Source: Dictyostelium discoideum (lineage: Eukaryota). Taken from it: DNA of 64,000 nucleotides. How positions within the stretch are numbered: position 1 is the first letter of the stretch; each line of letters begins with the position of its first letter. Shown here in pieces: positions 35,686 to 45,424 of this stretch. The position numbers were made by a program, and so were the translations under genes. The stretch is from positions 1,088,001 through 1,152,000 of the forward strand of contig CM000155.2 of NCBI GenBank assembly GCA_000004695.1. Direction: 5' to 3'. A model generated the notes under the pieces. That model was given only the letters and a program-made list of their open reading frames with translations, ran no database searches and was not told the origin of the DNA.

Positions 35686-36939
35686 TTTTTTTTTTATTTT
35701 TTTTTTTATTTATTTTATTTTGTTTTTTTTTTTTTCTAATCTTTTTTTTTTTTTTTTTAGTATAATAATTAAACTATATTATATTATTTTTAAAAATAAA
35801 TAAATAAATTAATGAATAAATTGAAATTATAATAATGATTATATTTGTGGTAAAATAAAATTAAAATAAAAAAATAAAAATAAAACTTTTTTTTTTTTTA
35901 TTTTTTTTTTTTTTGAGTGATATCAGACGTGTGAAATTATAATAATAGAATGAAAAAAAAAAACAAGGGGTTATCAATTGTAAAAAAAAAAACAAAAATA
36001 AAATAAAATAATAAATAAAAAAAAAAATGAAATTATAAATAAAACAAAAATAAAAAAAAAAAGAAAAGAAAAATCAAAAAAATGAAAAAAGGAGTTTGAA
36101 ATCTGACAATCGGTTATTAAAGATAGTGTGATAAAAAAATAAAAAAAAAAATCATAAAAACAACTGACCACCTGTCATTTTTTTTTATTATTTTGAAAAT
36201 TTTTGTGCATTGCCAAAGTGTTTTTACAAAATTGTGTTTTTTTTTTTGGTTGTTTTTTTTTTGGAAATGCCAAAATGTCTTAAAGAAATTTTTTTTTTGT
36301 TTTCTTTTTTTTAACTTTTTTTTATTTGTTTTTTTTTTTTTAAAAAAACCGTCACAAAAAATTGTATTTTAAAACTTAAATATTTGATGTAAAAAATAAA
36401 ATAATATTGGGGAAAACACCACACACTTTGGTTTAAAAATATGAATTTTTCTTAAAATTTAAAGAACTTCTTTGTGTACAATTCTTTTTGGTTTAAAGAG
36501 AACACGACTTGAATTCTTTTTTTTTGTGGCACAATTTTATTAAAAAAAAAATGGTTATTGGTTGGGTATTTGTTTTGGATTCAATCAAAAATAAAATATA
36601 CTTTATAATTGTTTAAAATTATCTTTATTCAAAAGAGATAATATTTTAATAAATTATTGTTTTTTTTTTTTTTTTATATAATCATTTAAATTAAATAATA
36701 ATTAACTTTTTATTTATAAACTATAATTATAATTAAAATTTGATATCACACCTATTTATAAATTAAAATTTTTTTATTTTTTTATTTTTTTTTTTGAATT
36801 CCTTTGTCTTCTGGAAATGTTAAAGGATATTGCTTTTATTGTTTGAAGTTTACTTTTTAATATTGATTAAAGGCAATAAACAATAATAATTGTTTTATGA
36901 AAAAACCTAAAGCAGCTATAAATTTTGATTTTCATCAAA

Positions 36940-37021
36940 GACATCGTAGCGAAGTGGTCTAACGCGTTTGACTTGAAATCAAATCTCCTAGGAGGCGCAG
37001 GTTCGAACCCTGCCGATGTCG
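36940..37021 (+). tRNA. tRNA-Ser (UGA), copy 2 of 4
   Basis: Identical 82-nt sequence to copy 1. It has the same 5' leader ..agctataaattttgattttcatcaaag and the same 3' trailer with external B-box-like tttacGAACTTCGg. Confidence 0.85.
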
Positions 37022-37064
37022 ATACCTTTTCAATGGAATAGCAGGTTTACGAACTTCGGATATA

Positions 37065-39637
37065 TCATACAAAGGCTCAAGCTAAGAAAAACAACAGCTA
37101 ATCACTATTGTATTCCAGAATCATCTCTCCCAAATATTATCTCATTACGAAATGTTGGAAAATTGGACAGTGACCAGGGACTCAACATGGGACAACCTTG
37201 AAAATGAATTCACCTCACAAGAAATCCTTGAAGTAATAAAACAACTGAACCCACACAAATCTCCAGGTCCAGATGGAATTCCAAACTTATTCTACATAAC
37301 ACACAAAGAAAAACTAGCTCCAATACTGGCCTCAGCATTCAACGACACTCTAAGAAATCCTCATCTAATTAGCAAAAATTACAAAGAAGGCCTCATTATC
37401 ACGATACCTAAAAAGGGAGACCCCGAACTAATCAAAAACAGAAGACCAATTACACTGGCTAACTGTATATATAAAATCCACTCAAAGCTAATAAACAATA
37501 GAATAATCCCAATACTAACGAAAGTGATCAACCACAATCAAAAAGGTTTCGTACCAGGCAGATTCATTCTAGATAATATCATATCAATGAACGAATTAAT
37601 CAACTATTGTAATGATAAAAGAATTAACGGAATAATTACACTATATGATTTCGAAAAAGCTTTTGACTCGATCTCACACGGTTCAATACTTAGATCACTA
37701 CAACACATCAACATTCCAACCAATATAATCAACCTGATAATGAATCTACTCACCAAATCTGAAGCAAGAATTGAAATTAATGGTAGAACTACTATACCCT
37801 TTGAGATCAAAAGAGGAGTTAAACAAGGAGATCCACTATCACCCACCCTGTTCGTCCTTGTAATAGAGGCTTTAGCTAGAAAAATTTTACAAGATGACCG
37901 AATTACTGGCCTTCCTCTAAACAACAGCAACCACAGAGAGAAATTCCCAAAGCTTTGCAGACGACTCGGCTTCAATGGTCCCAGACTCTCAACAACTTGA
38001 ATTAGTACTACAACACTTCAATTCATTTTGCAAAGCCACTTCCTCAAAACTTAACATCGACAAATCTTCATCAATTCTTATAGGCAACCCAGACAATACC
38101 AACCAAAGAATTCCAATATCTACAAATCCAGAAAGATACTTGGGATACTTCTTCACAGGTAAAGGGATAACAAGAAAAATGCCAGAAATATTAAACACAA
38201 TAAGATCATCCTTAGTACTATGGAAAACCACTGACTCAACAATCAAAACCAAAACCAACATCCTCAAAGCATTCGCACTCTCTAAATTAACCTACTATTC
38301 ATATGTAGAGAACTTTAAGGAAGAGGAATTAAACCAAATCAATAAATTAGTCGAATGGTTTTTATCGGCACCAAACAACAAAAATGCTAGTGGATTTCAA
38401 GTTATTAATTTAATGAGAACCAAAAGAGCAAGATACCCACTAAAAGTAGGGGGCTGGAACATTTGGAATATAGAATTGAGACAACTGGCGCAGAAACTTT
38501 GGATCATAAACCAGTTCATCCTAGCACTAGAAACCAAACAAACAAACTCATCTCATCACAAAAGCTGGGAATATCAGATCCAAAAAAACAAATTCACATC
38601 CAGATACCTAAAAGAAAACTTAGATGAATGGAACAAAATAAGAATAAAAAAAGCAATCTTCAACAATAATCTCACATCCATAAAAAACGAAAATGGACAA
38701 CCACTTTCACTGGCAGAATGGTATACCACAATTCAAGACCAAAATCCAACCATCCCTAAAACGGAATTCCAATCATCTCTAAACTTAAGAGGCTACAGCT
38801 ATAATCAACTCTTCAACAACATACTGAAGATAAAAGACCCTAAAACAAGAGACACAATGTTTAGATTCCATGCCAGATGCCTTCCAATAAACTACCTTCA
38901 CAACAAACAATGCCCACTCTGCAAAGAAGATATGAGCAAAGACCCATACGGTCACCTGTTCTTCTCATGCAAGAAAACAAAACAATTCATAAAAATAAAT
39001 AAACTCAAAAATTTCATCTATATTACCACAGGCAAAGGTAAAAACTGGCACCATACAAGAATTAGGCAAAATAACAATTTCATTAATAGAATAACTCCAA
39101 AATTATCACCGACAGCCAAAAAAGATCAAGAAGTGAATGCAGATTACGCCAACCACAGATTCCACAAAGAATACTTTGAATGGAACTATAAAGCAATAGA
39201 CTATGATCTAACCAGATCATTCGCATATAGAAACCTAATGGCCCTTATCCTCCACAACATTTGGATTTGGATTTGCAATCAAATATACAGTGAAGATCCT
39301 TTAACAAATGAATCACTATCATACAGCTCCCTTCTAAAGAAATGGCACAAATTGGCCACTCTAGAATACATCAAAAAAGCAAAAGATCTGAAAAACTTAT
39401 CAGCAAAAGACCATAATAATTTCAAAGATCCTAAGATCCTTCTCACCTCAACGATCAAGCTAAGAAAAACAACAGCTAATTACTATTGTATTCCAGAATC
39501 ATCTCTCCCAAATATTATATCTTTTGATCAATTCATATGATTAAAATAACCCTTCAGCTTAAATGATAAGCCTATAAATAAATATTAAATAAAACTCGTA
39601 TTAACACAGATGGACATATATCAATCTTGTTAATCCA

Positions 39638-39683
<46 letters not shown>

Positions 39684-39985
39684 AAAGGTTCGAAACTCGG
39701 TCGATTCCCCAATTCTGGGGACATTTCCTTTTATGGATAATGTTTTCTTTCTTTCTTTTGTTGTCCCAATTTTCAAATCAGGATTTGTTTTGATATTTAG
39801 ATGTGGATCTATTTTTTGTGAACTTTTCCAGCTTTTATGGTCAAAGTAAATTGTATTCATTCTCGAAGTTCTTTTCTACTTCGACCAATTCATCTAATCA
39901 ATTACAAGCTTACTTGATTATTTATTTAATTTAAATAATTTTAAATACTAACCTATTTAAAAACTGGATATTAAAAAAAAAAAAA
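37065..39985 (+). mobile_element. TRE3-type (tRNA-gene-targeted, downstream-inserting) non-LTR retrotransposon, 5'-truncated. ORF2 RT plus C-terminal Cys-His region, ending in A-tracts
   Basis: It starts about 45 bp downstream of tRNA-Ser copy 2, right after the ex-B box. The RT motifs are SPGPDGI, FDFEKAFDSISH, KQGDPLSP (ORFs 37152..38000 and 37975..39540, overlapping in different frames). There is a C-terminal CPLCKEDMSKDPYGHLFFSC zinc-knuckle-like region. An internal A40 lies at 39645-39685, and the terminal A-run is at about 39961-39985. A 65-bp segment at 37075-37140 is repeated at 39458-39523. Confidence 0.75.
37152..39540 (+). pseudogene. Retrotransposon ORF2 (reverse transcriptase), N-terminally truncated (no endonuclease domain) and split across two frames
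   Basis: RT domain 0-7 motifs are in 37152..38000. The continuation in 37975..39540 is in a different frame, suggesting a frameshift near 37975-38000. There is no APE/EN domain upstream because the element is 5'-truncated at the tRNA. Confidence 0.7.
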
Positions 39986-40084
39986 AATTGTTTCTGATGT
40001 GGTTAATAAAAAGCACAAATGGAAATGGTAATACTCCAAAAATACGCAATCTAAATAAAAATAGGATAGAAATTCAATCCAACA

Positions 40085-44190: not shown

Positions 44191-44243
<53 letters not shown>

Positions 44244-44248
<5 letters not shown>

Positions 44249-44940
44249 CAAGTTAATCAGAAAAATAAAAAAGATAGAAAGAAAATAAAATGAAAATCAC
44301 AAACAACACCACAAATATTAAGCAACACAAATGCCTACAAAAAATAAGCGAAATTGTGGATAAAACTCAATTAAAAAAAAAACAATTCAAATACGTCATA
44401 AACATCAATCACGAACCAGACGATAAAATAAAAAAAGATTTAGAAAAAAGTTTGGACAAAAAAGATGTTTTAATCAAAAAGACCCTGTAAAAAAAAAAAA
44501 AAATAAAATGAGATCTAGCATCTCAAGGAGAAGCAAATAATAATTGCGTTATCCAATTCAAAAAAAAAAAAACTATTAGAAATAGGAGTAAAAGATAGTT
44601 TTGAAGTAATAGTAATAGTGAATTGAAGTTATCATTGCCCCATGCACATGATTTCAGTTTTTCGAAAGATTGCTAGATTATCATGTGAAGTTTCTTCTTA
44701 CAGCATATAATCTTCGGCATCCTCTGTTTGCATATATAAATATCTCTTGTAGCAAACCACGTTTATCTAATATGCAAGAGCATAAAACTTGCAAGCATTC
44801 CAGGTTCTTGCTCCCTTACTATATATGAGCTAACGTTCTCTACTTCCTCATAAGGTTGGTGGCCTTGCAAGCACTAACTCCTTCCTTATTCTTGACCGAC
44901 ACCATTTCTTATTATTACTATTATTATTATAAACGAAAAA
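44244..44940 (+). mobile_element. Second TRE5-A fragment: 5'UTR end + first 66 codons of ORF1 fused to a lower-AT non-coding 3' module (C-module-like)
   Basis: 44244-44490 duplicates 42500-42750 (..aagatagaaagaaaataaaATGAAAATCACAAACAACACC..), then breaks at KKDVLIK|KTL*. A roughly 450-bp unique-complexity segment (44500-44940) follows, a typical internally deleted TRE5-A derivative. Confidence 0.55.
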
Positions 44941-45094
44941 TTGTTTTTATATTCTATTTTTTTTTATTTTTATTTTTTATTTTCTGTTTTCTGTTTTAAA
45001 AAACCGAACTTCATTTTTTTTTTTACCTAAAAGCGGTGTAAAACCGAACTTCGTAAAATATCAATATATTTTACACGATTCATTGAAAAGGTAT

Positions 45095-45176
45095 CGACAT
45101 CGGCAGGGTTCGAACCTGCGCCTCCTAGGAGATTTGATTTCAAGTCAAACGCGTTAGACCACTTCGCTACGATGTC
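45095..45176 (-). tRNA. tRNA-Ser (UGA), copy 4 of 4
   Basis: Identical 82-nt sequence. The 5' leader is ..ttttcatcaaag, and the 3' flank has a ttacgaagttcgg ex-B-like box. Confidence 0.85.
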
Positions 45177-45424
45177 TTTGATGAAAATTGAATTTAAGTG
45201 CATGTAATTTTTTTACTACTCAAATTCAAATTTTTTATCACTTTGGTCCGTTCAAAATTTTTTTTCTACTTCAGTTCCAGCTGGCCTAAAAAACATCAAC
45301 AAAACAGAAACAGAAACATCAACAAAAACAACAGCATCCAAAGCTTATAACAAAACAATTTTTTTTTTTTTTGATTAATATTTAAATTAAATTTTTTAAT
45401 CATTTTAAAACAAATAACTTAATC

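Follow-up and report, generated by a model that had tools for sequence, protein, structure and literature searches.

Why does one stretch of DNA hold four identical genes for tRNA-Ser(UGA), and did the retroelement sequences beside them arrive one by one or travel with the genes as duplicated blocks? The stretch, referred to below as the window, comprises 64,000 nucleotides of Dictyostelium discoideum (GenBank assembly GCA_000004695.1, contig CM000155.2, positions 1,088,001 to 1,152,000 of the forward strand). Three of the genes (copies 2 to 4) form a nest with retrotransposons that lack long terminal repeats (non-LTR), and copy 1 lies apart from them near 9.2 kb. We are confident that the four genes have acted as repeated landing pads for the tRNA gene-targeted retrotransposable elements (TREs) of this species. 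TRE5 elements land about 50 bp upstream of a tRNA gene with the element’s 5’ end towards the gene, and TRE3 elements insert downstream, at distances of a few tens to about 150 bp, in the orientation of the gene. Such targeting at the nest is already known biology: the locus belongs to the reference genome, and its genes have been catalogued and profiled for TRE5-A. The main gains of our analysis are a reassignment of the external B box (ex-B box), and the finding that the elements are independent insertions and the tRNA genes local duplicates.

The tRNA-Ser(UGA) genes and their shared flanks

ARAGORN and Rfam agree on four tRNA-Ser(UGA) genes of 82 nt where the original prediction had placed them, and alignment finds 82 of 82 nt to be the same. 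All four are listed on chromosome 6 of strain AX4 (S2 table, PMC5391098).

9223-9304, minus strand: tRNA-Ser(UGA) copy 1, SerUGA-15 (ARAGORN, Rfam, S2 table; AX4 chr6 1097223-1097304)
36940-37021, plus strand: tRNA-Ser(UGA) copy 2, SerUGA-9 (ARAGORN, Rfam, S2 table; chr6 1124940)
41630-41711, minus strand: tRNA-Ser(UGA) copy 3, SerUGA-14 (ARAGORN, Rfam, S2 table; chr6 1129630)
45095-45176, minus strand: tRNA-Ser(UGA) copy 4, SerUGA-13 (ARAGORN, Rfam, S2 table; chr6 1133095)

The names follow from the spacings between the genes (27717, 4690 and 3465 bp), which are exactly the values of the S2 table (PMC5391098). The published SerUGA primer agrees with the window gene at 24 of 25 positions, the open reading frames (ORFs) of the window are 99-100% identical to AX4 proteins, and the G+C content of the window is 17-34%. 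In culture, tagged TRE5-A elements integrated de novo upstream of three of the four genes (S2 table, PMC5391098). That profiling was done in AX2 cells, and its reads are given for each of three libraries: 2184, 7320 and 314 at SerUGA-15 (copy 1), 0, 776 and 62 at SerUGA-9 (copy 2), 25, 23115 and 862 at SerUGA-13 (copy 4), and 0, 0 and 0 at SerUGA-14 (copy 3).

How much flanking sequence the genes share bears directly on the question. A common 5’ leader does exist, but not at the 12 nt first proposed: the twelfth base is the tRNA’s own +1 G, and only 10 nt (tttcatcaaa) are common to all four copies, extended to ttttcatcaaa in copies 2 to 4 and to atttcatcaaa in copy 1. Between copies 2 and 3 the shared stretch runs from -27 to +49 and measures 158 bp at 96% identity, in inverted arrangement (41582-41738 against 37070-36913), and their junction flanks proved identical as predicted, with the 25-nt tttacgaacttcggatatatcatac downstream of both. 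Copies 2 and 4 have 108 bp in common at 100% identity and copies 3 and 4 have 112 bp at 98%; copy 1 shares with the others the leader of about 10 nt and conserved downstream motifs. Identical flanks of more than 200 bp were looked for as the mark of segmental duplication, and at most 27 nt upstream and 49 nt downstream are common to the loci. As this is below the 200-bp threshold, the tRNA-plus-element blocks are not segmental duplicates.

Elements beside copies 2 and 3

Three elements occupy most of the sequence between copies 2 and 4, and the parts of the third are given below it.

37076-39682, plus strand: E2, 5’-truncated TRE3-type non-LTR element with a reverse transcriptase (RT) domain, a CCHC motif and an A40 tail (39643-39682)
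40092-41581, minus strand: E3, 5’-truncated TRE3-type element of another, abundant subfamily, with a CCHC motif and an A13 tail (the T-run 40092-40104)
41758-44571, plus strand: TRE5-A.2, head-to-head with copy 3 (Tandem Repeats Finder (TRF), self-BLAST, comparison with genomic copies, PMC3159450)
41758-42452: TRE5-A.2 A-modules, 3.5 x 199 bp (TRF), then an A-run
42560-43894, plus strand: TRE5-A.2 ORF1, 444 amino acids, about 51 kDa
43895-44188, plus strand: TRE5-A.2 ORF2 remnant, in which about 80 N-terminal (endonuclease) codons are joined directly to the last 19 codons
44189-44479, plus strand: TRE5-A.2 3’ B-module
44480-44559, plus strand: TRE5-A.2 shortened C-module, about 90 bp, then oligo(A) (A12)

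E2 starts at +55/+56 of copy 2 and has the orientation of that gene (+/+). Its RT domain matches RVT_1 (E=1e-27), it carries one +1 frameshift near 37945, and it is 99% identical to DDB_G0285835/P0018. A target-site duplication, CAAAGG, flanks it at 37070-37075 and 39683-39688. With E2 excised in silico the flank reads ...catacaaaGGTTCGAAActcgg, and in a divergent D. discoideum isolate (locus L008) the orthologous flank is uninterrupted, ...ggatatgtcacccaaatgttctaaactcg..., and is thus an empty site for E2. The empty site identifies E2 as a simple insertion. The first 70 bp of the element (37077-37146) repeat the sequence with which its own ORF2 ends (39455-39524), with short microhomology at the joint to the RT region (self-BLAST). 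This start is not an ordinary internal repeat of the family, as neither the full-length P0018 nor a longer copy in locus L011 is collinear there. Because the CAAAGG duplication bounds the whole of E2, the rearranged 5’ end was probably produced by a template switch during reverse transcription, within a single insertion event.

E3 starts at +49 of copy 3, again in the orientation of its gene (-/-), and its 5’ junction is the point where the homology between copies 2 and 3 ends. It covers only the C-terminal third of ORF2, beginning at about residue 924 of the 1389-residue P0028, and is 96-100% identical to P0011/P0028/P0038. Each of the two elements matches a set of AX4 gene models of its own at 96-100% identity, and their proteins are only about 36% identical to each other; they are therefore members of different subfamilies and not copies of one insertion. 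Elsewhere, an E3-family element with ORF1 closely follows a tRNA-Gln gene and its ex-B box, in the same orientation (locus L010). The endonuclease domain is missing from both E2 and E3 because both are 5’-truncated; it is seen in a longer E2-family copy in a second assembly (GCA_054883475.1, JBTAPE010000034.1:1976910-1998127; locus L007). Published TRE3 integrations lie 40-150 bp downstream in the orientation of the tRNA gene (PMC5911963), and the distances observed span 14-228 bp for TRE3-A and 34-188 bp for TRE3-B (PMC5006619).

On the other side of copy 3, TRE5-A.2 starts at 41758, leaving a gap of 46 bp to the 5’ end of the gene at 41711. With the element on the plus strand and the gene on the minus strand, the A-modules lie next to the gene and the element’s 5’ end faces that of the tRNA. 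Integration of TRE5-A about 44-54 bp upstream of tRNA genes has been described, with an observed range of 37-90 bp (PMC5911963, PMC5006619). A B-module of about 290 bp is present at both ends (42426-42749 and 44192-44479, 89% identity by self-BLAST), and ORF1 is 99% identical to many AX4 proteins, with dozens of copies in AX4. We compared the element with full-length TRE5-A references from the second assembly, which have ORF1 and an RT-bearing ORF2 of 1047 amino acids. Relative to these, 3.1 kb of ORF2 and about 70 bp where the B- and C-modules meet are missing from it, and the part of the C-module that it retains is 92-93% identical to theirs. The reduction of ORF2 to about 80 plus 19 codons is the defining deletion of the non-autonomous TRE5-A.2 form, which has been described as AB-ORF1-deleted ORF2-BC with a 72-bp BC deletion and the terminal 87 bp of the C-module left (PMC3159450). 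A 15-bp target-site duplication, ACTATTAGAAATAGG, is present at 41743-41757 and 44572-44586. Over 2.6 kb the element is 98.4% identical to equally short copies at unrelated tRNA genes, placed either 45-48 bp upstream of tRNA-Val and tRNA-Thr or after a further TRE5-A as a tandem.

The number of A-modules at 41758-42452 differs between the two assemblies, at 3.5 in the window and about 1.5 in locus L007, which points to either copy-number instability or collapse of the 199-bp tandem.

The external B box

Downstream of every copy, the original prediction had singled out a motif resembling an ex-B box (GAACTTCG/GAAGTTCG). The motif, CGAA[C/G]TTCG, does occur downstream of all four genes, some 27-29 nt away at copies 1 to 3 and about 43 nt away at copy 4, yet in a pattern scan it fell outside the published B-box consensus GTTCRANNC (PMC5391098). 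The same scan matches the internal B boxes and, outside the tRNA genes, GTTCGAAAC. Taken as the palindrome TTTACGAA[C/G]TTCG, the motif noted earlier stands at about +24 in copies 1 to 3 and about +40 in copy 4. Judged by its match to the pattern, the true ex-B box is GTTCGAAAC and not the motif noted earlier.

9162-9170, at +53 of copy 1: ex-B box of copy 1, GTTCGAAAC (pattern scan)
39688-39696, plus strand: ex-B box of copy 2, GTTCGAAAC (pattern scan), directly past the E2 poly(A)

Homologous boxes are found at copy 1 and at the minus-strand tRNA copy of the divergent isolate (L008). The empty site in that isolate, together with the CAAAGG duplication, shows that E2 landed on the border of the ex-B box and separated it from copy 2, so that the box now lies displaced by 2.6 kb.

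Remnants beside copies 1, 2 and 4

Further retroelement remnants are shorter or more degenerate, and some belong to a third TRE3-like family, here called X.

39705-39987 (5’ limit approximate), plus strand: E2b, short degenerate TRE3-like fragment of family X with an A15 end
8571-9150, minus strand: X1, degenerate TRE3-like ORF2 C-terminus and 3’ untranslated region (tblastn E=3e-12)
45000-45052, minus strand: micro-insertion downstream of copy 4, ACACCGCTTTTAGGT + A11 + T, 27 bp at 45013-45039
9316-10536, plus strand: three pieces upstream of copy 1, namely an LTR-like repeat, a TRE5-like ORF2 C-terminus and a 210-bp fragment

E2b stands in tandem with E2, matches the copy-1 remnant X1 over about 100 bp, and is also present with its flank in L008. 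X1 has the orientation of copy 1 (-/-) and begins at or before +76, immediately behind the ex-B box (9162-9170). Like E2b, which lies behind the box of copy 2, it is one of the older fragments. Its relatives lie 76-79 bp downstream of tRNA-Glu and tRNA-His in loci L006 and L001, in the same orientation. We looked for target-site duplications of X1 and E2b and found none. The micro-insertion of copy 4 sits between 13-bp direct repeats, GAAGTTCGGTTTT, at +43 to +55, and looks like the tail of an extremely 5’-truncated retroelement.

Past the poly(A) of X1, the sequence at 8440-8570 is rich in C and A, repeats the 17-mer TTTGGGTGGTTTGATTG at 8460 and 8512, and then passes into an A/T-rich tail. 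It may be another truncated element.

Upstream of copy 1 the LTR-like repeat runs from 9316 to about 9580. It starts with TGTAATG (TGTAATGAACG), 11 bp upstream of the gene, and has a homologue at another tRNA locus (L005, 6869-7050); we regard it as a candidate DGLT-A/H3R solo LTR. Two TRE5-like remnants stand in tandem behind this repeat. One is an ORF2 C-terminus at 9764-10212 with poly(A) at about 10326, found by tblastn with TRE5-A ORF2 (E=6e-8) and with a homologue behind TRE5-A.2 in locus L006. The other, the 210-bp piece at 10327-10536, ends like a C-module, with a match of 23 of 25 nt to the C-module end. Nothing TRE-like, TRE5 included, was detected upstream of copies 2 and 4 by tblastn or by comparison of loci.

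How far the landing-pad reading holds

Every copy had been predicted to be flanked by retroelement sequence at exactly the TRE distances. This stands for copy 3, with TRE5-A.2 at 46 bp, and for the TRE3-type sequences downstream of copies 1 to 3. It fails upstream of copies 2 and 4, where TRE5 is lacking, and it is weakened at copy 4, where the downstream side holds only a 27-bp relic, and at copy 1, where the TRE5-like remnants lie behind the LTR-like repeat.

Several further observations weigh against the landing-pad reading. No target-site duplication of E3 was found at its junctions. E2 is nearer its tRNA gene than the often-quoted ‘~100 bp’, yet it falls inside both published TRE3 ranges given above. 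The 15-nt relic at copy 4 has no other copy in the window or the fetched loci. The assignments to TRE families were made by comparison with AX4 proteins, genomic copies and published descriptions and not with named consensus sequences for TRE3-A/B/C/D or TRE5-B/C, and the letters of the TRE3 elements and of the TRE5 relics are accordingly left off. Finally, the sequence between TRE5-A.2 and copy 4 has no place in this reading: its six frames contain no ORF, Rfam gave no match, and none of the fetched loci carries a copy of it.

44590-44905, no strand assigned: non-coding block between TRE5-A.2 and copy 4, comparatively rich in G+C (30-46%)

As to the letters, the protein names carry no TRE labels; GenBank AAC27746.1, described as ‘similar to HC domain of Tdd-3 and DRE’, falls in the protein cluster of E3, and the abundance of gene models would make E3 TRE3-A and E2 TRE3-B, which is only a guess.

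Insertion, duplication and differences between strains

The tRNA genes have a history of their own. At the syntenic position D. citrinum has one tRNA-Ser(UGA) gene, the divergent D. discoideum isolate (L008) has a convergent pair 1.8 kb apart, and AX4 has three; on this count copies 2 to 4 are local short-unit duplicates of one gene. It is rather probable, in our view, that rearrangement of the tRNA genes contributed as much to the nest as insertion did, through duplication of 110-160 bp units, inversion between convergent genes, and gene conversion bounded by the element junctions, with copy 3 a recent inverted copy or convertant of copy 2. Such rearrangement would complement the insertion model. 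It is favoured by the single gene in D. citrinum and the convergent pair in the isolate, by the segment between that pair (ex-B box, family-X element and spacer), which is inverted in AX4 relative to L008, and by the identity of copies 2 and 3 (96% over 158 bp), which is far above that of the corresponding pair in L008. The direction of change, however, could be either: AX4 may have gained a copy, or L008 may have lost one when copies 3 and 4 recombined. The comparison covered three outgroup loci.

The second assembly adds a difference at copy 3. GCA_054883475.1 is 99.86% identical to the window up to 41521 (flanking 11 kb). There, 192 bp (41522-41713), made up of the first 60 bp of E3, 48 bp of flank, tRNA copy 3 and 2 nt, are replaced by a 3.44-kb TRE3 of the E2 family with an RT-bearing ORF of 1059 amino acids, and only two tRNA-Ser(UGA) genes are kept. 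The extra element meets the flank with its poly(A) 108 bp downstream of the former copy 3 and with its 5’ end 2 nt upstream of that gene. This looks like a TRE3 insertion with a target deletion that removed copy 3. Whether the nest is still changing between strains, with TRE3 insertion able to destroy its own target and TRE-associated rearrangements creating and deleting tRNA copies, we judge to be an even bet; the copy-3 difference offers a small lead on recent TRE3 activity and tRNA gene loss.

We think it improbable that the copy-3 arrangement is an artefact of assembly, either a collapse of repeats in AX4 or a mis-join in GCA_054883475.1. The two assemblies do differ exactly at repeated elements, and SerUGA-14 drew no reads in any library of the TRE5-A profiling of AX2 cells. 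Nevertheless, L007 is clean at both joints, its poly(A) joint falls at +108, which is canonical for TRE3, the private substitutions in the flank of copy 3 require real reads, and the high identity of the flanking 11 kb also argues against an artefact.

That the nest arose by segmental duplication of one tRNA-plus-retroelement block, its elements descending from a single ancestral insertion, is scarcely tenable. In its favour are the identity of the tRNA genes and the 158 bp at 96% that link copies 2 and 3, in which the 25 nt before the junction are contained. Against it, homology between the loci ends at or before the element junctions, E2 and E3 differ in truncation point and have about 36% protein identity, the orthologous site in L008 lacks E2, and TRE5-A.2 is bounded by a 15-bp duplication of its own. 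The identities of the elements rule it out. Repeated independent hits, as the original prediction had it, are what remains well supported, by the divergence of E2 from E3, by the E2 duplication and its empty site, and by a TRE5-A.2 with its own duplication and 98.4% identity to copies at unrelated tRNA genes.

Neighbouring sequence

Within the non-coding block, a class I RNA gene at 44685-44730 was considered and rejected: the stretch has a DUSE (Dictyostelium upstream sequence element)-like CCC box and a TGTG box ahead of TCTTACAGCAT, which agrees with the 11-nt class I RNA motif CCTTACAGCAA at 9 of 11 positions, as well as an AAG start and a CUGU end. The defining terminal stem between the 5’ and 3’ ends does not form, however (minimum free energy 0, not an improvement on shuffled sequences), and the curated set does not contain it. 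A box C/D small nucleolar RNA at 45220-45330 (minus strand), upstream of copy 4, was likewise rejected, with Rfam E values of only 4-9 and no entry in the published D. discoideum catalogue.

To the right of the nest, 46416-48058 and 48875-50459 form a direct duplication of 1.6 kb at about 83% identity, which is also present in L008 and L009. The neighbours of copy 1, judged from their translations, are an ABC transporter-like gene (5680-8040, plus strand, 786-residue ORF) and a WD40-repeat, SEC13-like gene (11850-12944).

Mechanism and comparison with known systems

In D. discoideum 61% of tRNA genes have a TRE and 13% have both kinds (PMC5006619). By analogy with what is known of these elements, those at the nest would have recognised tRNA genes by the RNA polymerase III transcription complex (TFIIIC/TFIIIB) that assembles at their A and B boxes. 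They would have integrated by target-primed reverse transcription, a process expected to leave poly(A) tails, 5’ truncations and variable target-site duplications. Each element at the nest would represent a separate insertion event, and tandems may have formed as later arrivals landed nearer the gene and earlier ones were pushed outward. The three clustered tRNA genes, for their part, may derive from a single ancestor through local duplication of short units, inversion or gene conversion.

The element upstream of copy 3 has no essential difference from TRE5-A.2 (formerly DRE): position, orientation, modules, the 444-residue ORF1, both deletions, oligo(A) and target-site duplication are all the same, and the A-modules number 3.5 here, about 1.5 in the same insertion in GCA_054883475.1 and 1.5-2.4 in other copies. 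E2 and E3 resemble the L1-like TRE3 family (TRE3-A/Tdd-3, TRE3-B/RED, TRE3-C, TRE3-D) in the RT domain of E2 and in C-terminal CCHC motif, poly(A), 5’ truncation and tandems. Unlike that family, E2 starts with 70 bp of the 3’ end of its own ORF2 and has split an ex-B box from its tRNA gene. The repeat upstream of copy 1 resembles the DGLT-A solo LTR (‘H3R’) in its TG start, in its distance of 11 bp from the gene, beside a published range of 13-33 bp, and in its recurrence at another tRNA locus; it is a putative DGLT-A LTR with no defined 3’ boundary or duplication.

The nest cleanly illustrates how retrotransposons in a compact genome target safe havens. Yeast Ty3 and Ty1 follow the same strategy and use RNA polymerase III transcription complexes as marks of safe havens in a compact genome. 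They differ from the TREs in being unrelated LTR elements that depend on an integrase and insert upstream; to our knowledge they insert there only, and never downstream.

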